From Gemmatimonadota bacterium (GTDB lineage Bacteria; Gemmatimonadota; Gemmatimonadetes; Palauibacterales; Palauibacteraceae): a stretch of 64,000 nucleotides of DNA. Under the pieces are notes generated by a model that was given only the letters and a program-made list of their open reading frames with translations, did not search any database and was not told the origin of the DNA. The translations under genes and the position numbers were made by a program. Position 1 is the stretch's first letter, and every line of letters begins with the position of its first letter. The DNA lies in the NCBI GenBank assembly GCA_963666735.1, contig OY762926.1, forward strand, positions 2,495,319-2,559,318, written 5' to 3'. Positions 49,959 through 63,654 of the stretch are shown here, in pieces.

Positions 49959-51227
49959 CTACGGTCCGAGGGCCGCGACGGGGATTACGGCGACACCGTC
50001 CGCACGTTCGTATGCATAGCCATCGTGGACGATAACGCAGAGGGCTGCCGGTTCTCCACACCGGTCCGTATCCACCCGCTGCGCGAACTTGAGCAGGATC
50101 TTGGCGGCGTCGTCGATCCGGTGCGTACCCAGCTTGACTTCGAAGGCGGCCCAACGGCCGGGTCCCCCGTCGACGATGACGTCCACCTCCAAACCTGTGT
50201 TGTCTCGATAGTGGTACACGTGCGCATCCATGGCTTGGGCGTAGACGCGCAGATCCCGCACGACCAGCGACTCGAACAACAGCCCAAACCACGCGATATC
50301 ACTCATTAGATGACGGGCGTCCGCACGGAGCGCCGCGGTGGCCACCGATGGGTCCGCGAAGTGCCGCTTGGGCGTGGACCGCAGCCGTGAGCGCGAGCGG
50401 AGATGGGGTCCCCAGGGAGGCTGCGGCTCGATAAGCATGAGGCGTTGCAGTGTCGCCAAGTAGGTGTGCGCCGTCCCTTCGCTCAGCGGCGGCCCCGGCC
50501 CGCCGACGTCCGCCGCCAACGTCGAGATGGATGCGGTCGTCGATACGTTGCGCGCGTACGACTGCAGCAGCCGGCTCACGCGCTCCGGGTTATGCCGCGT
50601 TCCGTCCAAGTTAGGGACGTCGGTCCGGCAGACCTCTTCGATGTAGTCCCGGTTCGCCCGCAGAGCCGCGCGTGGCGACTTTCCAAGGTTGGCGGGCCAG
50701 CCGCCGAAACAGACGAGGTCGGCGAGCGCCCTCGCGCCCAGTCGAGCCTCCGAACCCGGTACGCGTTCGCCGCCCAGGACGGCCCGGAGCGACACGGATC
50801 CGGTGGACCGGCCCAGTTCGAACAAGGACATGGGCCGTAGGCGAAGTCGGCTGACGCGGCCCGCGCCGGAATGACGCGTGATGTCATCCGACGGCACGGC
50901 GGAGCCCGTGAGGATGAACTGCCCCGCCGCCTGGCGGTCGTCCACCGCGCGCCTCATGTGATTCCAAAGTCCGGGCTCCAGCTGCCACTCGTCCAGGAGG
51001 CGAGGTGCCGGGCCCGCCAGTAGCTCGGCCGGATCCAGCCTGGCGAGCCGGCGGGCCGTCTCGTCCACATCAAGGAGTACCTGGCTGCGCGCGAGGCGCT
51101 GCGCCGTCCACGTCTTGCCGGAGGCGCGCGGTCCTTCGATGAGAACGGTGCCCGCCGCCGCGAGGCGTTCCTCCAGCTCCGCGTCCGCGACCCGCGGGCG
51201 GTAGCCCTGTGTAGATGCCATCGTCAC
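49959..51227 (-). CDS. AAA-domain ATPase with DUF4143-like C-terminal region
   Basis: GPRASGKTW Walker A; typical 420-aa architecture. Confidence 0.7.
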   Translation of the reverse strand: MTMASTQGYRPRVADAELEERLAAAGTVLIEGPRASGKTWTAQRLARSQVLLDVDETARRLARLDPAELLAGPAPRLLDEWQLEPGLWNHMRRAVDDRQAAGQFILTGSAVPSDDITRHSGAGRVSRLRLRPMSLFELGRSTGSVSLRAVLGGERVPGSEARLGARALADLVCFGGWPANLGKSPRAALRANRDYIEEVCRTDVPNLDGTRHNPERVSRLLQSYARNVSTTASISTLAADVGGPGPPLSEGTAHTYLATLQRLMLIEPQPPWGPHLRSRSRLRSTPKRHFADPSVATAALRADARHLMSDIAWFGLLFESLVVRDLRVYAQAMDAHVYHYRDNTGLEVDVIVDGGPGRWAAFEVKLGTHRIDDAAKILLKFAQRVDTDRCGEPAALCVIVHDGYAYERADGVAVIPVAALGP

Positions 51228-54525: not shown

Positions 54526-55398
54526 ATGCCCAGAATCATGCTTGCGGACAACCTCGACGCGCTCCGGCGCCTGGCCGATGGCCACGCGGATCTCATCTAC
54601 ATCGATCCGCCGTTCAACACCGGCCGGACGCAGCAGATGACGCGGGTTCGGACGCGTCGCGTCTCACCGGGTGAAGGCGGAGACCGGACGGGCTTCCAAG
54701 GGGCGCGCTACGAGACGACCGCTTGGGGCACGCGCCGCTTTGCGGACCGGTTCGACGACTACCTCGAGTTCCTCGGCCCCCGGCTCGTCGAGGCATACCG
54801 CGTTCTCGCTCCGCACGGGTCTTTCTACCTCCACGTCGACTACCGGGAGGTGCACCACTGCCGCGTCTTCCTGGACGACCTGTTCGGGCCGGAAAACCTC
54901 CTGAACGAGATCATCTGGGCGTACGACTACGGCGCGCGGCCGAAGACGCGGTGGCCGGCGAAGCACGACAACATCCTGTTCTACGTGAAGGACCGGACCA
55001 ACTACGTCTTCAATGTGGATGAGATCGAGCGCATCCCCTACATGGCGCCGGGGCTCGTCGGGCCCGAGAAGGCCGCGCGCGGCAAGCTGCCCACGGACAC
55101 CTGGTGGCACACGATCGTCCCCACGAGAGGCGCCGAGAGGACGGGCTATCCGACCCAGAAACCGCTCGGCATCCTGCGCCGCATCATCACGGCTTCCTCG
55201 AATCCCGGCGACCTCGTGCTCGACTTCTTCGCGGGCAGCGGCACCACCGGCATGGCCGCCCACGAACTGGGGCGAGACTTCATCCTCGTCGACGATAACC
55301 CCGAGGCACTCGAAGTGATGGCGAAACGGTTCGAATCCATGCGCGGCGTCCGCTGGGAGGGCTTCGACCCGCCCAAGATCTTGGAATCACATGCATAG
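54526..55398 (+). CDS. Beta-class DNA methyltransferase (N6-adenine or N4-cytosine), orphan or partner of adjacent unknown genes
   Basis: DPPF (motif IV) near N-terminus followed later by FFAGSGTTG (motif I). Confidence 0.8.
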   Translation: MPRIMLADNLDALRRLADGHADLIYIDPPFNTGRTQQMTRVRTRRVSPGEGGDRTGFQGARYETTAWGTRRFADRFDDYLEFLGPRLVEAYRVLAPHGSFYLHVDYREVHHCRVFLDDLFGPENLLNEIIWAYDYGARPKTRWPAKHDNILFYVKDRTNYVFNVDEIERIPYMAPGLVGPEKAARGKLPTDTWWHTIVPTRGAERTGYPTQKPLGILRRIITASSNPGDLVLDFFAGSGTTGMAAHELGRDFILVDDNPEALEVMAKRFESMRGVRWEGFDPPKILESHA

Positions 55399-55590: not shown

Positions 55591-56124
55591 GTGGGGGAAA
55601 AGGTCCTTGATCTGGGCGACCTGGGCGACGGAACCATGGTCGGGCTGAGCCCGGAAGTTGGAAGCTCCTTGGCCCAAGCGGGTGCCGTGTGCCTGGAATC
55701 GCAGTCTCACGTGCCGGGGGTTGACCTAGCGGTCACGGGCAGGATCGTGGGCACGCATCCCCTGCACTGGGAACCTCCGGATGATCAGGCACGCCTTTCC
55801 TGGGGCAACGAGATCGACGCGACCGAGGACGGCGCGGCGGGGATCGCCCTTCTGTTGGCCCGTCGGTTGATGAACCTTGTCGTGATGAGCCGATCTCGGC
55901 ACGGCACCGGCTTCGACTACTGGCTGGGCGGGGACACCGCCGAACCCCCGATCCAAGGTGCGGTCCGTCTGGAGGTGTCCGGTGTTCGCAGTGGACCGTC
56001 CGCCGTTGTGGCGCGGCGATTGAAGCAGAAGCTGGACCAGATGCAACGTGGTGACCCGACGTTCGCGGGCTATGCGATCGTGATCGAATTCGGACGACCA
56101 ACGACCGCCGTGGCAACACCATGA
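55591..56124 (+). CDS. Hypothetical protein, no recognisable domain; GTG start with GGAGGAGGGA SD
   Basis: ORF + strong RBS + ATGA coupling to next gene. Confidence 0.4.
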   Translation: MGEKVLDLGDLGDGTMVGLSPEVGSSLAQAGAVCLESQSHVPGVDLAVTGRIVGTHPLHWEPPDDQARLSWGNEIDATEDGAAGIALLLARRLMNLVVMSRSRHGTGFDYWLGGDTAEPPIQGAVRLEVSGVRSGPSAVVARRLKQKLDQMQRGDPTFAGYAIVIEFGRPTTAVATP

Positions 56125-57218
56125 ACGAGTCGCGCACCGCTCACGATCGGGCGATGGACCTTGCGTTTCTTGCGGATCGATCCAAGGCGGCAGGCAACTT
56201 GGAGGAAGCCGGCCGGCTCTATGCGCAAGCCTTGGAGCGCGAGTTGGCGGCGCTGCGCGCCCTCCGAGACCCGGCCCCCGTTACGTTCGCGGTCATGCAT
56301 CGGAGCGCCGCTTGGCTAGCTCTGGAATGCGATGACGTCCGGCTCGCCGAGAAGCTCGCGTCCGCCGGACTTGCAGGAGACCCGCCTCCCGAGATTGCTG
56401 ACGAACTGCGCGAAGTCTGGGAACAGGCCAATTTCCACCGGCACCTCTATGCACGAGGGGTTGTCCTCTCGGATAACGAGATTCAGATGACCCTTTCGGG
56501 CCCCGGAGTGGGCTTGGGCATTACCGAATGGACGGGATATCGCACCCGCGTGGACCACACGTTGCGCATGATCACCCGCATCACCGAAAGAAGAGCGGAG
56601 CGGCCGTTCAGGTACGGGAAACCTCCCGGAGTCGAGATCCAAAAGCACCTGAGTCCGCATGTCTCCCTAGCGAAGGCGGCGAGCTACTCGGTGTCCATCC
56701 GACTAGGGGCTGACCAACTGCGCTTTCCCGGGCTGGACCTGCCTGAGATGCCGGACGTGATTCACGACTTCTTGACGATCGTCGAGAAAGTGAACGGCGC
56801 CGGCGACGATCAGCTTGAAGAGACGATCCCGGACGCCTCCTATCGTCGAAACGCCCTCGCCCTTGCCAAGAAGATCGCTCCCGACGGTAAGAGCATCAGA
56901 CAGGTCGGATTCGCGGCTGCGGGGGTTGAAGGGCGTCGCACGATTGGATTCACTCGCACGAGGAAGGAGGTCCGGCCACCCGCCATCGACCGCACACAGG
57001 AGGAGGAGGAGGTTGAGATCCACGGTACCCTGCTGTTTGCGGATGCTCGGAGTAGCAGCAACGAGATCAGGATCGTTGCTGACGACGGTGATCACAAAGT
57101 AAAGGTTCCACCTGAAATGATGGACGATATCGTTCGTCCGTTGTGGAATGCGGCGGTTTCGGTTCGAGGCGTGCGGCGCGGCAAGTCTGTCACTTTGACA
57201 GAAATCGACCCCTCATGA
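56121..57218 (+). CDS. Hypothetical protein (helical/TPR-like N-half, beta-rich C-half), translationally coupled to preceding gene
   Basis: ORF, coupling, lower GC than flanks. Confidence 0.4.
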   Translation: MNESRTAHDRAMDLAFLADRSKAAGNLEEAGRLYAQALERELAALRALRDPAPVTFAVMHRSAAWLALECDDVRLAEKLASAGLAGDPPPEIADELREVWEQANFHRHLYARGVVLSDNEIQMTLSGPGVGLGITEWTGYRTRVDHTLRMITRITERRAERPFRYGKPPGVEIQKHLSPHVSLAKAASYSVSIRLGADQLRFPGLDLPEMPDVIHDFLTIVEKVNGAGDDQLEETIPDASYRRNALALAKKIAPDGKSIRQVGFAAAGVEGRRTIGFTRTRKEVRPPAIDRTQEEEEVEIHGTLLFADARSSSNEIRIVADDGDHKVKVPPEMMDDIVRPLWNAAVSVRGVRRGKSVTLTEIDPS

Positions 57219-57312
57219 GGCGCCGCTGTGACGTGAACGACGTCATCGAGGGACTCGGCACCCAACGGCGGCGACGGGTGGAGGAGCCGCTGCTGAACTC
57301 ATCGCGGAGGAA

Positions 57313-57537
57313 ATGACGCTGCGCGAGCTGCGCAAGGCCCGGCGGCTCACCCAAGTCAGCCTGGCACGCCAACTCGGCATAGGCCAGGAAGGCATATCGC
57401 GGCTGGAAAAGCGTAGTGACCTGCTCCTCTCGACTCTGCGCAGGACCGTTGAGGCCATGGGAGGTAGGCTCTCGCTGGTCGCGAGGTTCCCCGACCGGCC
57501 GCCCGTCGAGTTGTCCGGCATCGCCGATCCGGAATAG
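57313..57537 (+). CDS. XRE-family HTH protein (antitoxin/regulator-like)
   Basis: MTLRELRKARRLTQVSLARQLGIGQEGISRLEKR. Confidence 0.55.
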   Translation: MTLRELRKARRLTQVSLARQLGIGQEGISRLEKRSDLLLSTLRRTVEAMGGRLSLVARFPDRPPVELSGIADPE

Positions 57538-57763
57538 AAACCCCGATTCCCAGTCCTTCGAGTCCGCCGGGCGCGCGGCGGCGCGACTTGGCGGGCCAAG
57601 GCCCGCGGTCTGCCGCGGCAAGCCGGAAGCGTAACGCTAGGGCCGGTTGTGCCGCCTCTCGCGTCTCAACATGTTTGCCCATGTCCATCAAGAATCATCC
57701 CGCATAACCGATGGATTCATCCAAACCGCCACGGTCCATCGTCCGGTCGGAGTGGGGGACGCG

Positions 57764-60172
57764 GTGAGGCGTTTGTCGCGTCTTCGCTCGGCCGAGCTCG
57801 CGACTCTCGGACTTGTCACCGTCCTCGTTCCGGGCTGCGGGAGCGAGGAGACGGCTGGACCGCCACCCCCTTCGCCGGAACCCCCGCGACCGGCCTCCAT
57901 CTCGGTCACTCCGGCCACAGTCACGCTGACTGCCCTGCGAGACACAGTTTGGCTGGTGGTGGAGGTGCGCGACCAGCGCGGCCGTCCGTTGGAGGGCGCG
58001 GCGGTGGCTTGGGCGAGCGGCGATCCGGCGGTGGCGTCCGTCGAGGGTTCCGGGCTGGTGACGGCCGTGGGCAACGGGACCGCTTCGGTGTCGGCGACTT
58101 CCGGGGCGTTGTCGGCTATGGCGTCGCTGACCGTGACGCAGGAAGCGAGCCGGGTGGCGGTCACGCCAACGGCGGCCACGCTGGTCGCCGGCGACACGCT
58201 GCGACTGTCAGCGGAGGCGTTCGACGCGAACGGGCACGCGATGCCGGGAGCGGCGTTCGCGTGGAGCACAGACAACGCGGCGGTCGCGACCGTCGATTCC
58301 ACTGGTTTGGTGCGCGGGGTGGCCGAGGGGACGGCAATGATCGCGGCGTCGGCGGGGAGCGCGGAGGACACGGCCGATATCGTCGTGGAAACGGATCCCA
58401 ACCGTGCCGCCTTGGTGGCGCTCTACGAAGCGACCGACGGGCCGAACTGGGTGAAGAACGAGAACTGGCTCACCGATCGCCCGCTCAACGAATGGTACGG
58501 CGTTGCGACCGATGAACTGGGCCGAGTCGTTGGCTTGCACCTGGCGGACAACCGGCTGGCTGGCCCGATCCCGCAACTGCTTGGGCATCTCGAACACCTG
58601 ACTTATTTGGCCTTCTGGGACAACAAACTCACCGGCTCGATCCCCGTCGAAATGGGGAAACTCACTCGCTTGCAGTGGCTGTACATGCGCGGGAACAGAC
58701 TGGCGGGGCCTTTGCCGCCGGAGCTAGGAGGTCTCACCAATCTCATAGACATGCGCTTGGACGGGAACGTTCTCAGCGGTCCGATCCCGGCAGAGTTCGG
58801 CGAGCTCGCCAACCTGACGTTCCTTGACCTTGGCGGGAACGCTCTTTCGGGGTCCGTGCCGTCCGAGTTGGGCGACCTGACCGGCTTGGCGCAACTTCAT
58901 CTCGGCTGGAACGCCCTATCGGGCGCGATCCCATCGGAACTCGGAAACCTCGCCAGCTTGACACACCTGGTGCTCGCTTCGAACGACCTCTCGGGTCCGA
59001 TTCCCGAGAGTTTTCTGGAGCTCACCGCGCTTGAGACCTTCAACTTTCTTGGGAACCCGAACCTGTGCGCTCCGGGCACAACCGGTTTCGTGACTTGGCT
59101 GGAGGGCATGGGCGAGACGTCCGGGCCGTATTGCAACGCTTCGGACATGGGCGTGCTGGAGCGCCTGTACGAAACTGCGGGGGGATCGGATTGGACGAAT
59201 TCCAATGGTTGGATCGAGACGCCCGCGCTCGAAGAATGGTACGGCGTTTCGGCGAACTCGCTTGGACAAGTCGTGACGCTCGATCTTACGAGCAACAATC
59301 TCGTGGGTGATTTGCCGGCCGACCTGGGTGCGCTGACCGAGTTGACCGCAATGCGGATCGGCGGCAACGCGCTGTCCGGTCGGCTGCCGGTTTCCCTGGC
59401 CGGTCTCCCGCCCCTTGACGAGTTGCACTACGCCGATACCGGGCTGTGTATACCCGGCGAGCTTCGTTCGTGGCTCGGCGGCATTCCGTCGCACGAGGGT
59501 ACGGGCGGGGAGTGCGATCCCGTGACGGTCCGTGCGGTGTATGCGCTTCCTTCCGATCGGGAGTATCTCACCAGGTACCGCGACGGGATCAGCAACGCAC
59601 TGCGGCAACTACAAACGTGGTACGGGGAACAACTCGGAGGACCAACCTTCCGGCTCTACGATACGATCCCGGACCGTTGCGACATGCCCCGGGAGCACGA
59701 TTACTACCGGCACGGCGGGTGGCCGAGGGTATGGAACGAAGTGCTGGCCGCGGTTCAGCGATGCGCCGACGTGAAGTATAACTCCGCGGAGCATGTCTGG
59801 CTGGTGTTCGCGGACGTCGACGAACGTCCCGGAGAGTGCGACGATCCCGGTGTTGTGAAGGGGCTGGGACGAGGTGGCGGCGGGATCGCGATGGTGAGTT
59901 GGTGGGACTTGGAGGGGTTGAGCGATCCGAACTTCGAACTCTGTCCCTACGGCGTTCTAGGGATGGGAAAATGGATAGGCGGCGTCGGCCATGAACTAGG
60001 CCATGCCTTCGGGCTTCCGCACCCACTGGGCTGCGAGGAGCGCCGCGAGGACTGCGCTGAGGGGACCCGCAAGTGGGACGCGCTTATGTGGTACGGATTC
60101 CATTATTGGCCGGACACCTACCTACTGGAGCCCGAGAAGGAGTACCTGCGCACAACGCCAGCCTTCCGTTAG
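57764..60172 (+). CDS. Multidomain lipoprotein: 2x Big_2 Ig-like, two plant-type LRR modules each with LRRNT-like cap, C-terminal metzincin-like Zn-protease domain; GTG start 57764
   Basis: Lipobox LVPGCGS; 24-aa LxxLxLxxNxLSGxIPxxLGxL repeats; HELGHAFGLPH (HExxHxxGxxH). Confidence 0.65.
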   Translation: MRRLSRLRSAELATLGLVTVLVPGCGSEETAGPPPPSPEPPRPASISVTPATVTLTALRDTVWLVVEVRDQRGRPLEGAAVAWASGDPAVASVEGSGLVTAVGNGTASVSATSGALSAMASLTVTQEASRVAVTPTAATLVAGDTLRLSAEAFDANGHAMPGAAFAWSTDNAAVATVDSTGLVRGVAEGTAMIAASAGSAEDTADIVVETDPNRAALVALYEATDGPNWVKNENWLTDRPLNEWYGVATDELGRVVGLHLADNRLAGPIPQLLGHLEHLTYLAFWDNKLTGSIPVEMGKLTRLQWLYMRGNRLAGPLPPELGGLTNLIDMRLDGNVLSGPIPAEFGELANLTFLDLGGNALSGSVPSELGDLTGLAQLHLGWNALSGAIPSELGNLASLTHLVLASNDLSGPIPESFLELTALETFNFLGNPNLCAPGTTGFVTWLEGMGETSGPYCNASDMGVLERLYETAGGSDWTNSNGWIETPALEEWYGVSANSLGQVVTLDLTSNNLVGDLPADLGALTELTAMRIGGNALSGRLPVSLAGLPPLDELHYADTGLCIPGELRSWLGGIPSHEGTGGECDPVTVRAVYALPSDREYLTRYRDGISNALRQLQTWYGEQLGGPTFRLYDTIPDRCDMPREHDYYRHGGWPRVWNEVLAAVQRCADVKYNSAEHVWLVFADVDERPGECDDPGVVKGLGRGGGGIAMVSWWDLEGLSDPNFELCPYGVLGMGKWIGGVGHELGHAFGLPHPLGCEERREDCAEGTRKWDALMWYGFHYWPDTYLLEPEKEYLRTTPAFR

Positions 60173-60314: not shown

Positions 60315-60677
60315 TTAGGGATCGCGGTGGACGGTGTAGGGGGAGAAGGCGGGGAGGCAGACAGCGACGTACTCGGCCCCGTCGGGGCCCGGCGTGCTGT
60401 AGCGGACCCATTCGCCCGCGCGGGTCACGACCGCCTGGCCGGCCTTCACGTCGATCACGCCGCCCTCGTGCTCGACGCGCAGGGTGCCCCGCAACACGAC
60501 GGTGATCTCCTCGAACTCGGGGCGCTGACCCGGTTCGACCCACCCGGACGGCGCCGTCATGCGCGCCACGCTGACACGGTCGTGCCCCGTCCGGACACGA
60601 CCGGCGTATTCCTCGATGCGCTTGGGCTGGTTCCCGGCCGCCTCGATGACGGCCGGGGCTTCGATCAATGTCGGCAT
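60315..60677 (-). CDS. Cupin-domain protein
   Basis: Small beta-barrel pattern ...ITVVLRGTLRVEHEGGVIDVKAGQAVV... Confidence 0.5.
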   Translation of the reverse strand: MPTLIEAPAVIEAAGNQPKRIEEYAGRVRTGHDRVSVARMTAPSGWVEPGQRPEFEEITVVLRGTLRVEHEGGVIDVKAGQAVVTRAGEWVRYSTPGPDGAEYVAVCLPAFSPYTVHRDP

Positions 60678-60713: not shown

Positions 60714-62753
60714 CTACATCCCCGCGCCCGCGAGGGCCCGGACCGCGTCGGCCAGCATGCCGACCTTCGCGACGTCTCCGGCCCCGCCGGCGTCTCCGGA
60801 CACGTCGTCGGCCAGCGAACGCAGCGCGCCGGCGCGCCCCGAGCCCGACATCCCCTCGGCTGCGGCGAGTTCGGCCCGGATCGCGCCGATCCTGGCGGCG
60901 GAGAGCCCTCCGTGCCGCTCCAACTGGTCCAGGTAGGCCCTCGCGAGCGCGAACGTCGCGGGCCATTCGAAGATGGGCTGACCCTGGGAATTGAGGTGCG
61001 TGAGCTGGACGGAGTTGGCCGCATCGATCTCGTTCTGCGTGAGCGCCTCGCTCGGGACCAGTTCGAGGATGTCGAGGCCGCGCGCGATCTCCGAGTTCAC
61101 GATGACGCCGTTGTACCAGTAGACGGACCAGCTGCCGCCCATCTGCATGCGGTCGGGGTTCACCGGACCGCGGTCGAAGTAGGCGATTTCCGCCGGGTTC
61201 GCCGGATCGGTCCAGTCGATGAGCGAGACTCCCCCCTGGTACCAGCCCTGAATCATGATGTCGCGGCCGGGGACCGGGATCAGCGATCCGTTGTGGGCCA
61301 CGCAGTTCTCCTCGGGCGTCTGCGGCGCGGGCAGCTTGAAGTAGCTTCGGAATTCCATCTCCGTGCCCTCGATGGTGAAGATCGCGTTCGCGCCCCACTC
61401 CATCGGGTCCGAGGCCCGGCACTTCGGCGCGCCGCCGCCACCCCACTCGTCCGTGAACAGGATCGCGGTGCCGTCGTTGTTGAAGGTGGCCGAATGCCAG
61501 TAGGAGAAGTTGGAGTCGGACACGGCGGAGAGCCTGCGGGGATTCTCCGGATCGGAAATGTCGAGAAGCATGCCGTAGCCCTCGCACGCTCCACCGGCGA
61601 GGCCGATGGCCGGATACACGGTGATGTCGTGGCACTGCGTCGGGCCGGGCTCGGGGCCGTCCCCCTCCTCGCCCTGCTGTCCCGTCATCTGCGCCACGAT
61701 CGAAGGCAGCGCTTCCCGCAGCGTCGCGCTGTCGGCGGCGGTGGGCGCGCCTTCGCCGCCGCGCTGGGCCACGATCTGTCCGAGCATCTGCTGCGCGGCC
61801 TGCTCCGGCAGCACCATCTCCTGCCCCATCATCTCGATGATGAAGGCGCCGCGCTCGCGGGCCGCCTCGATCGCCGCAATGTCGTCGGGCGCCAGACCGT
61901 GCGTCGGGGGCGCCACCAGGTCCTCGAAGATGCGGGGCGAACTCACGACCGCGGCGCTCGCCGGATCCGCCAGCGGCACGCGGATCACTTCGATGCGGAA
62001 GAGGGCGGTGTTCGGGTCCTCATCCGGCGGCGCGCCCGAGCAACCCGCGAGTTCCTCCTCCGGGCGCACCGGCGCGGAGCCGGACACATAGATGTAGACG
62101 TTCTCCTCATCCCCGGGGTGTTCCAGCAGCGTGTGCGTGTGCGAACCGCGGCAGGTCTGGACGTTCGCGACGTATGCCGGCGCCGTGATGTCCGAGATGT
62201 CGAAAATGCGGATCCCGCGCAGCCGGTCGTGGCTCACGGCCTCCTCGACGCCCTGGTCACCGCAATCCAGCCGCCCGCCGAACCCCTCGCCTGAGACGAA
62301 CAGCAGGTTCTCGTACACGGAGACGTCGCTCTGGGAAGCGGGACAGACGTACGTGATGACGGTCTGCGGATTGGCGGGATCGGAGATGTCCCAGATCTGA
62401 ATCCCGTCGTAGTTCCCCTGGATCGCGTACGGGCCGGAGAAGGCGAGGTCGGAGTTCGTCTTGCCCACGAACGGGTCCGGCGGCGGCGTGGCGGACAGGA
62501 GGTCGAGGTTCCAGATCGCCTCGCCCGCGTCGAACATGCCGGAAGCGAGCCCGACGCGCGGGTCCGGCGTGGGCGGATCGACCTGCAGCCCCGTGGGCGC
62601 GGCGGCGGGGGCCGCGGGAGCGGTGGCCATGCCGGTCTGCGTCGACTGGTATGCACAGCCCGCGAAGCTTACCGCGGCGATCGCGCCGGCGAGCAGCGTC
62701 GCGAGGCGAGCGGTGAATCGCGTGTCGTCTCGTTCGTTCGTTACAGCGGACAT
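60714..62753 (-). CDS. LVIVD-repeat beta-propeller lipoprotein; start ATG 62753 with AAGGA SD
   Basis: Lipobox FAGCA; repeated G.IWDISDPANP / GIRIFDISD / LLDISDPENP / LIDWTDPANP. Confidence 0.6.
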   Translation of the reverse strand: MSAVTNERDDTRFTARLATLLAGAIAAVSFAGCAYQSTQTGMATAPAAPAAAPTGLQVDPPTPDPRVGLASGMFDAGEAIWNLDLLSATPPPDPFVGKTNSDLAFSGPYAIQGNYDGIQIWDISDPANPQTVITYVCPASQSDVSVYENLLFVSGEGFGGRLDCGDQGVEEAVSHDRLRGIRIFDISDITAPAYVANVQTCRGSHTHTLLEHPGDEENVYIYVSGSAPVRPEEELAGCSGAPPDEDPNTALFRIEVIRVPLADPASAAVVSSPRIFEDLVAPPTHGLAPDDIAAIEAARERGAFIIEMMGQEMVLPEQAAQQMLGQIVAQRGGEGAPTAADSATLREALPSIVAQMTGQQGEEGDGPEPGPTQCHDITVYPAIGLAGGACEGYGMLLDISDPENPRRLSAVSDSNFSYWHSATFNNDGTAILFTDEWGGGGAPKCRASDPMEWGANAIFTIEGTEMEFRSYFKLPAPQTPEENCVAHNGSLIPVPGRDIMIQGWYQGGVSLIDWTDPANPAEIAYFDRGPVNPDRMQMGGSWSVYWYNGVIVNSEIARGLDILELVPSEALTQNEIDAANSVQLTHLNSQGQPIFEWPATFALARAYLDQLERHGGLSAARIGAIRAELAAAEGMSGSGRAGALRSLADDVSGDAGGAGDVAKVGMLADAVRALAGAGM

Positions 62754-62786
62754 GTCGGATCCTTCGATTGGGGTGAGCTTCACGAA

Positions 62787-63445
62787 TCAGCCGCCCGTCT
62801 CCGGCGCGGCGAGCGCCTCGAGCATCAGCTCCATGCGGGCGATTTCCGTGGCCTGATCGACGTGGATGTCGGAGGCCAGCTTGAAGACGAAGTCATCCTG
62901 CGCGGCGCCGTCGGTCGCGAACAATTCCCGCACCATCGTGACGGCGCCCTTGTGGTGCCGGATCATGTATTCGAGGAAGAGCCGGTCGAAGTCGGCCCCG
63001 CGCGCGGCCTCGAGTTCCGCGAGTTGCTCCGGGGTCAGCATCCCGGCCATGAGCATGGCCCCGTCGCCGTGGCCCCGCATGTCTCCGGTCTCGGGCACGG
63101 GCAGCCCGCGGTCGGAGAGCCAGCGGCTCATGACGGCGATTTCATCGGTCTGCGCGTTGATGATCCTCGCACACAGCGTCCGGATCGAGGGACTCGCGTC
63201 GGCGTCCGGAGCGAAGCCCGCATGACCAGAGCCTGCGCGTGATGCGGGATCATGTGCGTCATGAAGCGGATGTCCGCCTCGTGCGCGCCCTCGAGGGCCG
63301 CTTCGGCGCGCGCCCGGTAGATCGCCTCGAGTTCGGCCACGCGCGCCGCGTTCGGGCGAGCCGGCGACTCGGATGGACGGCCGCCGGACCCCGCACTGGC
63401 ACACGCCTGTGCGACCGCCAGTAGGCCGAAGAGTGCAACGCGCAT
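62787..63445 (-). pseudogene. DUF305-family protein disrupted by a frameshift near 63195..63215 (N-part in one frame, C-part in another)
   Basis: N-terminal ...MIPHHAQALVM then frame change to ...GFAPDADASPSIRTLCARIINAQTDEIAVMSRWL...; both halves match DUF305 pattern (HH motifs). Confidence 0.55.
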
Positions 63446-63654
63446 GGCGCGCGTGGCGTGCGTTGTGTGGTGGGTCCTCATACTTCGCCGCGTGGTTACG
63501 TCCGTTACCGAGGGGTGTCCAGCTTGAAATCTGCCGAACAGGCATACCGAATCAGGCTTACGAATACAATCCTGAACGGTTTCGCAACCGGCTGCCGCGA
63601 GGGATCGGCAGCGGGGTGGCGGTCCGGCGAGGGCGGTGGCTGTGGCCCCGGCTA

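Follow-up and report, generated by a model that had tools for sequence, protein, structure and literature searches.

The gene at 57764-60172 (+) of the window (the whole stretch of 64,000 nucleotides, or 64 kb, that was analysed) is an unusual domain combination made from known parts. Its product joins an N-terminus of lipoprotein type, two Ig-like domains and two capped blocks of plant-type leucine-rich repeats (LRRs) to a C-terminal protease domain. The only characterized relatives of this domain, and members of its clade, are OgpA and AMUC_1438, two enzymes of Akkermansia that cleave O-glycosylated (mucin-type) proteins. The first-pass annotation of this DNA had proposed a probable lipoprotein in which Big_2 domains and two blocks of plant-type LRRs, both capped, precede a metzincin domain at the C-terminus, and this architecture is upheld by Pfam and by the sequence itself. 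The more specific family assignments fared unevenly in the Pfam scan: LRR_8 was recovered, LRRNT_2 gave no match, and the matches to the M10/M12 peptidases stayed below threshold.

Gene and domain organization

The gene is contained in ORF 57647-60172 (+) of the program-made list of open reading frames, on which the gene model is based, and comprises 802 codons and a stop, with GTG as the start. A Shine-Dalgarno-like sequence (ggagtggggga) lies upstream of this GTG, and the N-terminal pattern V/M-RR..LRSA.LATLGL.TVL..GC is kept in the syntenic orthologues L001 and L003. Along the 802 residues, the signal peptide and a Pro-rich linker lead into two Big_2 domains, after which come two capped LRR blocks, of seven and two repeats, and finally the metzincin domain. 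The full-length structure model is confident apart from residues 1-39 (pLDDT 91.4, pTM 0.70). A look-up of the exact protein sequence returned no record. The gene is preceded by a type II methyltransferase gene and two unknown ORFs, and is followed on the opposite strand by genes for a cupin, an LVIVD/choice-of-anchor-B protein and a DUF305 protein; no operon partner was found within the window and no promoter or terminator signal at the gene rose above background.

The signal peptide (MRRLSRLRSAELATLGLVTVLVPGC; 57764-57838 (+)) ends in a lipobox-like LVPGC with Cys25, which carries a Pro at position -2, non-canonical when compared to the lipobox [LVI][ASTVI][GAS]C. The orthologue L001 has a canonical LITGC at the equivalent place, and LSAAC, FLGC or AGAC lipoboxes occur in several stand-alone members of the OgpA-like family. 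Judged from these signals, the protein is probably exported and lipid-anchored on the cell surface. The signal peptide is followed by a Pro-rich tether (GSEETAGPPPPSPEPPRPA; 57839-57895 (+)), and the full-length model shows residues 1-39 as disordered (pLDDT below 50). Ig-like domain 1 (aa 45-125; 57896-58138 (+)) was recognized by the Pfam models Big_2, Big-like and Big_1 and is all-beta in the model (strands 45-124); Ig-like domain 2 (aa 128-209; 58145-58390 (+)) holds the best Pfam Big_2 stretch (aa 130-205), with modelled strands at 130-209. With 70.5 bits over two stretches, against a cut-off of 22.8, membership of Big_2 (PF02368) is clear.

The leucine-rich repeats

The LRR region is matched by the Pfam models LRR_1 (E 1.4e-23), LRR_8 (E 9.3e-22) and LRR_14 (E 1.6e-17). 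Block 1 opens with an N-cap that was delimited on sequence (DPNRAALVALYEATDGPNW...NWLTDRPLNEWYGV; aa 210-254; 58391-58525 (+)) and that contains a modelled helix at 212-223; alignments to plant receptor kinases reach into this cap, and in isolation it gives a weak LRR_10 match (E 0.048). The repeats proper, which are delimited by Pfam, sequence and model alike, occupy aa 255-422 (58526-59029 (+)). Six consecutive repeats with the plant consensus had been noted earlier; the 24-residue consensus fits, but the count is seven. Directly after the seven comes a cap repeat, LETFNFLGNPNLC, and the sequence of the C-cap (LETFNFLGNPNLC435...C457; aa 423-457; 59030-59134 (+)) contains two Cys, and the same cap, with both Cys, is found again in the paralogues P0114 and P0161. 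The second capped block that had been described is indeed present and consists of an N-cap (aa 458-502; 59135-59269 (+); helix 459-471 in the model), two repeats (aa 503-550; 59270-59413 (+)) and a C-cap (LDELHYADTGLC562...IPSHEGTGGEC584; 59414-59515 (+)), each delimited on sequence, with the C-cap forming a module boundary. The repeat quoted in the first-pass annotation, LTFLDLGGNALSGSVPSELGDLTG, is located at aa 351, and of the cap motifs both NWLTDRPLNEWYGV and GWIETPALEEWYGV were found in the protein.

The consensus over the nine repeats, LxxLxLxxNxLSGxIPxELGxLTx, equals that of the plant-specific LRR class, to which the repeat length of 24 residues also assigns them. In the predicted model every repeat has the order strand, strand, short helix according to DSSP (e.g. 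strands 281-283 and 288-291, helix 295-299), and the extra beta-strand that characterizes the variable part of plant-specific repeats is present. The closest solved structures are the ectodomains of plant receptor kinases, both by sequence (MIK2, 2e-133; GSO1; FLS2) and by fold. The caps, in contrast, are not LRRNT_2 as had been suggested: PF08263 gave no match to the whole protein at E<=1 or, at E<=10, to the caps taken in isolation, both N-caps are free of Cys and so lack the Cys pair, and only the segment W.GV....V.L.L is shared with plant N-caps. The repeats are old and diverged; their mean protein identity is 44% and a tandem-repeat search at the DNA level found none. A literature search on plant-type LRRs in bacteria yielded no directly relevant work.

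The catalytic domain

The C-terminal domain (aa 585-802; 59516-60169 (+)) is a complete metzincin. The zinc motif HELGHAFGLPH, which had been read as the HExxHxxGxxH motif of metzincins near the C-terminus, was confirmed at aa 743-753 (59990-60022 (+)) and is the sole such motif across the window; its H, E, H, G and H do not vary among 38 family members. The predicted zinc ligands are H743, H747 and H753, with E744 as general base, and M775 is predicted to form the Met-turn (ALMWY; 60080-60094 (+)), the Met being kept in at least 90% of the family and aligning to M231 of OgpA. The extended zinc motif, the Met-turn and the metzincin fold place the domain in clan MA(M). The protein ends 27 residues past the Met-turn and lacks the C-terminal extension of ~90 aa that roughly half of the family members in the alignment possess. 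An hmmalign alignment identifies K736-W737 (59969-59974 (+)) as the equivalents of K198-W199 in OgpA, and W737 (W154 of the domain), located six residues ahead of the first zinc His, is invariant in the family.

A total of 78 close homologues of the catalytic domain was recovered, nearly all of them unannotated, and at E<=1e-30 the family comprises at least 620 clusters at 50% identity. The family profile matched residues 16-240 of the OgpA chain with an E-value of 2e-19 and AMUC_1438 with 1e-16 (in two stretches), whereas other metzincins scored 2e-3 or weaker with the same profile. The same two proteins have the closest fold among solved structures, as in a Foldseek search they came out on top (OgpA 2.4e-9, AMUC_1438 4e-7) and were followed by a gap of four log units. 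The earlier description of the domain as M10/M12-like is thus replaced by membership of the OgpA/AMUC_1438 clade: Reprolysin_3 reached 14-16 bits against a cut-off of 22.4. Membership of M10/M12 or of M66 (StcE) was considered and rejected, the matches being sub-threshold and limited to ~18-50 residues at the zinc motif, and for M66 neither the Pfam gathering score nor fold similarity supported the assignment. No Pfam or NCBIfam model covers the domain; the best NCBIfam match was archaemetzincin, with 13.7 bits against a cut-off of 145.

The scaffold family and the origin of the fusion

The Big_2-LRR scaffold has at least 3,626 relatives at E<=1e-30 in a database of 5.8 billion proteins, and all named ones belong to Gemmatimonadota/Palauibacter. 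The plant-type LRRs behind the 'eukaryote-like' label that was attached to this gene are not an oddity of this gene; they form part of a large native expansion in Gemmatimonadota/Palauibacter. Many of the scaffold relatives carry a C-terminal M66-like protease instead (22-30 bits against a cut-off of 20.6), for which phmmer found no solved relative, and in many paralogues of the lineage the Big_2 and LRR part occurs without a recognizable protease. That the protease of the paralogues belongs to the same family as that of the window protein was considered and rejected, as hhalign aligned 41 columns only, around the zinc motif.

The fusion of LRRs to an OgpA-like domain was found only in the window gene and its orthologues. 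All catalytic residues are intact in the window protein, P0079 (a syntenic orthologue) and P0001, whereas in the close syntenic orthologue L003/P0080 Big_2 and LRRs are kept and a deletion of ~333 nt with a frameshift has removed the zinc site, from which it follows that the protease may be dispensable. OgpA-like domains also occur as small stand-alone lipoproteins, one of which is named Candidatus Palauibacter (P0019). The OgpA-like domain of the window protein begins exactly at the module boundary, which is suggestive of a domain swap. Probably, as far as can be judged from sequence, the gene arose from a paralogue of the Big_2-LRR-(M66-like protease) type, the distal part of which gave way to an OgpA-like domain at this boundary.

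Proposed function and alternatives

We favour, with some confidence, the view that the protein is a modular surface zinc endopeptidase. Based on the domain types, the Sec/lipoprotein signal, Cys25 and the Pro-rich tether would fix the protein to the envelope, and the two Big_2 domains would serve as a stalk. The two capped LRR solenoids (7 + 2 repeats) could then offer a surface to which a protein or glycoprotein ligand binds. The catalytic domain, which follows the last LRR cap directly, with no linker and no pro-peptide, could cleave an extracellular (glyco)protein that the LRR module had captured or oriented. By analogy with OgpA and AMUC_1438 the cut site might lie next to an O-glycosylated Ser/Thr. 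That an OgpA-like domain sits in one polypeptide with a large protein-binding module suggests a defined macromolecular target. The first-pass annotation had conjectured a factor for host or prey interaction, or an adhesin-protease, which is reasonable as a hypothesis. A wider and rather doubtful reading holds that Palauibacterales possess a lineage-specific surface family in which a targeting scaffold of plant-type LRRs and Big_2 domains is paired with mucinase-type metalloproteases that can be exchanged (OgpA-like here, M66/StcE-like in paralogues) and that would recognize and cut O-glycosylated host or prey glycoproteins, for example those of sponge or coral mucus or matrix, or of algal cell walls.

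The protein could instead be a general, glycan-independent surface endopeptidase that scavenges protein as nutrient, with LRR and Ig-like domains that only extend the enzyme or loosely bind particulates, which we consider possible though not probable. Such a role would fit the spread of the catalytic family, which among the matches listed includes soil actinomycetes, Planctomycetes, Latescibacterota and other groups, with many free-living bacteria of soil and sediment, and its domain partners, which are generic surface modules and not carbohydrate-binding modules. Likewise, there was no glycan-utilization neighbourhood at the family loci, in that no recurrent genes for glycoside hydrolases, sulfatases or SusC/D were seen around 30 distant loci (104 crude ORFs scanned), and Palauibacterales have been described as chemoorganotrophs with amino-acid auxotrophies (PMC10469786). 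In the profile alignment the glycan contacts of OgpA (its G' subsite) are kept at two out of six positions (K736/W737) and not at the other four (Y116->H650, F166->G700, N235->F779, Y236->H780), although the latter belong to loops that cannot be aligned reliably by sequence. Against nutrient scavenging stand the invariance within the family of the Trp at the position of OgpA W199, the nine-repeat, double-capped LRR module, which would be elaborate for an unspecific protease, and the strict requirement for an O-glycan in both characterized relatives (PMC7518263, PMC9513282). A glycan dependence of the window enzyme itself is weakly supported: the unconserved contacts, the spread and domain partners of the family, the neighbourhoods of its loci and the missing C-terminal beta-sandwich of OgpA all speak against it.

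It is unlikely, in our view, that the protein serves mainly in adhesion or host interaction (as an 'eukaryote-like repeat' protein) for a bacterium associated with sponges, corals or sediment, with LRR binding as its function and an accessory or decaying protease. The loss of the zinc site from a scaffold that is otherwise retained (L003), and the abundance within the lineage of protease-less Big_2-LRR paralogues, would agree with such a role, as would the enrichment of LRR proteins in sponge-associated MAGs (PMC8163846) and the sponge and coral hosts hinted at by some Palauibacter species names. The deletion in L003 could, however, be strain-specific decay or an assembly error, and the catalytic domain is 79-92% identical between strains with all catalytic residues intact in the window protein, P0079 and P0001, which argues for purifying selection. 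Finally, a recent horizontal acquisition of the LRR region from a plant or alga, as might be read from the identity of the repeat consensus to that of the plant-specific class and from the plant receptor kinases among the best solved-structure matches, is highly improbable. Plant LRR ectodomains are abundant in the PDB, whereas the best database matches are thousands of Gemmatimonadota paralogues with 36-56% identity across the whole Big_2 and LRR part. In addition, the plant Cys pair is absent from the caps, LRRNT_2 does not match them, the local GC (0.64) lies inside the range found elsewhere across the window, and plant-type LRRs already occur in bacterial effectors (partial NCBIfam matches to XopAE, XopAC and XopL).

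Implications

To our knowledge, a gut mucin specialist is the only known source of O-glycopeptidases of the OgpA/AMUC_1438 type, which serve as reagents in glycoproteomics. The window gene offers a concrete construct with which environmental relatives of these enzymes can be tested. In case the enzyme is glycan-dependent it may bring new specificities for the analysis of O-glycoproteins, and in case it is not, it marks a limit of function transfer within the family. If the reading of a scaffold with interchangeable mucinases were true, the protein would be the first LRR-targeted O-glycopeptidase and a first functional handle on the large environmental OgpA/AMUC_1438 branch. More generally, the 'eukaryote-like' LRR proteins that are counted in the genomes of sponge and marine symbionts can be enzyme-delivery scaffolds and not just adhesins or mimics.

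Comparison with known systems

Related in overall organization are the Palauibacter/Gemmatimonadales Big_2-LRR proteins (some annotated as 'M66 family metalloprotease'; e.g. P0198, P0161 and P0114), which share the lipoprotein-like N-terminus, the Big_2 domains and the capped LRRs, with 47-56% identity over aa 1-585 of the window protein. The boundary SHEGTGxEC is common to the window protein, P0114 and P0161, but the paralogues are longer (1,000-1,400 aa) and continue after it with a third LRR block, and their protease matches Pfam M66 partially (profile positions 175-245 of 306).

Plant LRR receptor kinases and PGIP resemble the window protein in their 24-residue LxxLxLxxNxLSGxIPxxLGxLxx repeats and in the second beta-strand per repeat (as modelled), and they are the top matches. 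The Cys pair of their N-cap is absent from the window protein which, unlike the plant receptor kinases, has neither a transmembrane helix nor a kinase domain and stands in the context of a bacterial lipoprotein. The type III effectors XopL, XopAE and XopAC of Xanthomonas likewise are bacterial proteins with plant-type LRRs, and the NCBIfam matches to them are partial and confined to the LRR region (E 5.6e-19 to 4e-7), with scores far under the family cut-offs (68 bits against 600, the others being similar). These effectors are injected and cytoplasmic, and carry E3-ligase or AMPylase domains, whereas the window protein is predicted to be a Sec-exported lipoprotein with a protease.

With regard to catalysis, the closest systems are OgpA and AMUC_1438, which have been described as the founders of a peptidase family that is very large and diverse and unclassified (PMC7518263; PMC9513282), also in MEROPS (PMC9513282). 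The activity by which this O-glycopeptidase family is defined is cleavage on the N-terminal side of a glycosylated Ser/Thr, in strict dependence on the O-glycan. OgpA (Amuc_1119 of Akkermansia muciniphila; PDB 6Z2D/6Z2O/6Z2P; PMC7518263) has a metzincin domain without pro-peptide as well, and is identical in the histidines of HExxHxxxxxH (H205/H209/H215), the catalytic Glu (E206), the Met-turn and the K-W pair, K198 and W199 being glycan-contacting residues (PMC7518263). The identity to the window domain, however, is only about 20%, and the C-terminal beta-sandwich that walls the substrate groove of OgpA is missing; unlike in OgpA, the catalytic domain is C-terminal after Big_2 and LRR modules, and the organism is an environmental or marine, Palauibacter-like member of the Gemmatimonadota instead of a gut mucin specialist. 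In AMUC_1438 (specific for the Tn antigen; PDB 8DEK/8DF2; PMC9513282) an aromatic residue similarly precedes the first zinc His by six positions (Y217 compared to W737), and this Tyr is the equivalent of W199 in OgpA (PMC9513282). AMUC_1438 is likewise modular and has a binding module apart from the catalytic one, but there the targeting module is a C-terminal CBM51-like NPCBM, whereas in the window protein it is an N-terminal plant-type LRR.

Gene start and domain architecture

The gene (window positions 57764-60172, + strand) lies within a listed ORF spanning 57647-60172 (+). The start chosen in the first-pass annotation, a GTG at 57764, is directly preceded by the purine-rich stretch ggagtggggga, and translation from it yields 802 amino acids beginning with MRRLSRLRSAELATLGLVTVLVPGC. 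The N-terminus is conserved in two syntenic orthologs, one of which carries the canonical lipobox LITGC, and we infer that Cys25 is lipidated and the protein surface-exposed. No promoter or terminator signals above background were found at the gene. The GC content of the window is high (0.61-0.74). At 56001-60000 it is somewhat below that of the flanks (0.638-0.644 versus 0.67-0.69), but as similar values occur at 38-44 kb this was not counted as evidence of transfer. The highest GC skew of the window (0.099) was found at 58001-60000.

The first-pass annotation proposed a lipoprotein that combines Big_2 domains, plant-receptor-type LRRs and a metzincin protease, and this order was confirmed, far beyond chance, by the Pfam domains, the repeat layout and the zinc motif HELGHAFGLPH at residues 743-753 (59990-60022), the only such motif within the window. 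Two Big_2 domains (70.5 bits, cut-off 22.8) are accompanied by strong matches to LRR_1 (1.4e-23), LRR_8 (9.3e-22) and LRR_14 (1.6e-17). The first LRR block consists of an N-cap (residues 210-254, ...NWLTDRPLNEWYGV), seven consecutive 24-residue repeats (255-422) and a C-cap repeat with two cysteines (LETFNFLGNPNLC435...C457); the repeat run and its plant consensus thus stand, although six repeats had been counted. The second capped block, likewise noted earlier, is present between residue 458 and GGEC584 and follows the same plan, with an N-cap (458-502), two repeats (503-550) and a C-cap (LDELHYADTGLC562...GGEC584).

The consensus over the nine repeats, LxxLxLxxNxLSGxIPxELGxLTx, is the same as the plant-specific LRR consensus. 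Among all PDB sequences the ectodomains of plant receptor kinases came out on top (MIK2, 2e-133; GSO1, FLS2, PEPR1, ERL1, HAESA), and the alignments with HAESA, HSL1, PGIP2 and HPCA1 reached back into the W.GV cap segment. AF2 modeled the full-length protein confidently (pLDDT 91.4, pTM 0.70; disorder confined to residues 1-39), with a strand-strand-short helix arrangement in each LRR, the second strand per repeat being a structural hallmark of plant-type LRRs. In a Foldseek search with this model, the top matches were again LRR receptor kinases of plants, the two-solenoid TMK proteins among them. The caps had been likened to LRRNT_2, but this model matched neither the protein in Pfam nor the isolated caps at E<=10, and the Cys pair is absent from the N-caps, which are a cysteine-less bacterial version. 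Plant-type LRRs have precedents in bacteria: over the LRR region, NCBIfam gave partial matches, far below threshold, to the effectors XopAE, XopAC and XopL of Xanthomonas.

Identity of the protease domain

No Pfam or NCBIfam model covers the protease domain, and the earlier M10/M12-like assignment could not be maintained, as the M66, reprolysin-like, PF12044 and M10 models match below threshold and at the zinc motif only. The isolated domain (residues 584-802) recovered 78 homologs at E<=1e-3, nearly all of them 'hypothetical' and without Pfam domain (one from Candidatus Palauibacter) and many 240-330 residues long with signal peptides or lipoboxes. Within 38 aligned homologs the H, E, H, G and H of the zinc motif, the Trp six residues upstream and the Asp of the first strand (VYxxPxDR) are invariant, and the Met of ALMW nearly so.

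Run against solved structures, the family profile aligned along the entire domain with two O-glycopeptidases of Akkermansia muciniphila, OgpA (6Z2O/6Z2D/6Z2P; chain residues 16-240, E 2e-19) and AMUC_1438 (8DEK/8DF2; E 1e-16), all remaining metzincins scoring 2e-3 or weaker. When the domain was modeled with AF2 (pLDDT 96.5, pTM 0.92), Foldseek returned OgpA (2.4e-9) and AMUC_1438 (4e-7), with fragilysin and the adamalysins at 2e-3 or weaker. Sequence profile and fold agree, and an OgpA/AMUC_1438-like metzincin is well supported. OgpA cuts N-terminal to O-glycosylated Ser/Thr and was proposed to found a new peptidase family (PMC7518263). AMUC_1438 needs the Tn antigen, and the pair is described as the first to be characterized within a very large, sequence-diverse clade of mainly environmental bacteria, which has no MEROPS family (PMC9513282). 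The size is backed by our exhaustive profile search, which yielded 620 clusters (50% identity) at E<=1e-30 and 1,359 at E<=1e-10. Among the matches listed, members of the family were located in Actinomycetes, Planctomycetes, Latescibacterota, Poribacteria, Verrucomicrobia, Bacteroidota and Gemmatimonadota.

Relatives, origin and genomic context

Of 8,000 candidates scored in the full-length search, at least 3,626 proteins reached E<=1e-30, the best 120 being mostly Big_2 and LRR proteins of 1,000-1,400 residues. The architecture had been called eukaryote-like, but every named relative is from Gemmatimonadota (Gemmatimonadales, Candidatus Palauibacter spp.), and the Big_2-LRR scaffold is a native, lineage-specific expansion of this phylum. 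Palauibacterales inhabit marine sediments, sponges, corals and saline soils (PMC10469786), the names of several Palauibacter species allude to sponge or coral hosts, and sponge-associated MAGs are enriched in repeat proteins, including LRR proteins (PMC8163846).

Identity to the protein is 56% in the paralog P0114 and 47% in the paralog P0161, in both cases across exactly its first ~585 residues, and all three share the end-of-module motif ...SHEGTGxEC. Beyond it the paralogs run on into a third LRR block and an M66-like domain, whereas here a different protease starts directly after the EC. On this sequence pattern, the gene is best read as the probable product of a swap of the C-terminal protease at the module boundary. 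M66 (PF10462) is listed for 23 of the 120 best relatives, one of which is named 'M66 family metalloprotease'; on rescanning, the match in the paralogs was barely over the cut-off (22-30 versus 20.6 bits) and extended over no more than profile positions 175-245 of 306. Membership of the paralogs' protease in the family studied here was rejected, as hhalign aligned 41 columns only, at the zinc site. For the C-terminal domain (~450 residues) of the Palauibacter proteins P0161, P0114 and a third paralog, P0198, annotated as 'M66 family metalloprotease', phmmer found no solved relative; the domain may represent a distinct, uncharacterized zinc protease family.

The ortholog P0079 (79% identical) is intact and lies in a syntenic locus, with the methyltransferase upstream and the cupin, LVIVD and DUF305 genes downstream; P0001 is a fragment (91-92% identical). 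A third ortholog, P0080, comes from a contig of 3.9 Mb whose gene order matches that of the window (L003:6001-8004 against 57764-60172, 87-93% DNA identity). It lacks exactly one LRR unit (72 nt), indicating LRR copy-number variation, and a ~333-nt deletion with frameshift has removed residues ~664-775, zinc-binding motif and Met-turn included, which points either to a strain that has lost the protease or to an error of assembly.

Upstream in the window, 54526-55398 encodes a type II DNA methyltransferase (PADLOC MTase_II, E 4e-136); between it and the gene lie two overlapping ORFs (55591-56124 (+), 177 aa; 56121-57218 (+), 365 aa) without Pfam, NCBIfam or PADLOC match. The two ORFs occur in the syntenic locus L003 but not in L001, whose gene order is otherwise the same, which gives them the look of a cassette inserted beside the methyltransferase. 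A 422-residue AAA_14/DUF4143 ATPase (49959-51227, -) is a full-length match to the PADLOC candidate defense family PDC-S01 (E 6.5e-70). The opposite-strand block downstream, kept in both orthologous loci, encodes a small cupin (60315-60677, -), a 689-residue LVIVD-repeat/choice-of-anchor-B-like protein (60714-62783, -; 72.5 bits against TIGR04312, whose cut-off is 100) and a DUF305/DUF4142 protein (62787-63545, -). No link between this block and the protease is evident, nor an operon partner around the gene in the window.

Predicted function

When OgpA and the domain were both aligned to the family HMM, H205/E206/H209/H215/M231 of OgpA corresponded to H743/E744/H747/H753/M775, leaving the metzincin active site intact, and the glycan-contacting K198/W199 to K736/W737. 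The position of W737 is held in AMUC_1438 by Y217, which is implicated in GalNAc recognition (PMC9513282). Y116, F166, N235 and Y236 of OgpA stand opposite H650, G700, F779 and H780. Unlike OgpA, the protein has no C-terminal beta-sandwich; its second LRR block abuts the catalytic domain without linker, and a pro-peptide is absent. In 50 multidomain family members the partners are generic surface modules (CarboxypepD_reg, Big_2, fn3, BACON, Por_Secre_tail, FG-GAP) and no classical carbohydrate-binding modules; another ten members, in which the catalytic domain is C-terminal, have Big_2, fn3 or Ig partners, never LRRs. No glycan-utilization genes recur around 30 family loci. Taken together, clade membership and predicted catalytic competence are well supported. 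About half of the aligned catalytic-domain homologs (e.g. P0018, P0021, P0025 and P0054, the last named Victivallales) carry a conserved C-terminal extension of ~90 residues (...GGxFxxxxxxxxxWxExK...RLPxxGG...SxDxGKxWxxLY; family alignment columns ~505-625), for which no Pfam match is listed and which could be a counterpart to the beta-sandwich of OgpA.

A dependence on glycans, as in OgpA and AMUC_1438, is a reasonable extrapolation that we hold tentatively: K736/W737 are consistent with it, and the four positions aligned to other residues and the generic partner domains would suit a scavenging protease indifferent to glycans, itself a rather unlikely reading. An adhesin whose protease is accessory or in decay would fit the deletion in P0080, but is improbable next to the complete active site and the intact P0079. 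A recent transfer of the LRRs from plants, suggested by their consensus and fold, is very improbable given the native paralog family. In the reading we prefer, the Big_2 domains would form a stalk and the LRR solenoids would catch a ligand, protein or glycoprotein, and offer it to the protease, which may cleave beside O-glycosylated Ser/Thr. All parts of the protein are of known kinds; among ~230 family members inspected, only this gene and its close orthologs were found to join an OgpA-clade metzincin with plant-type LRRs.
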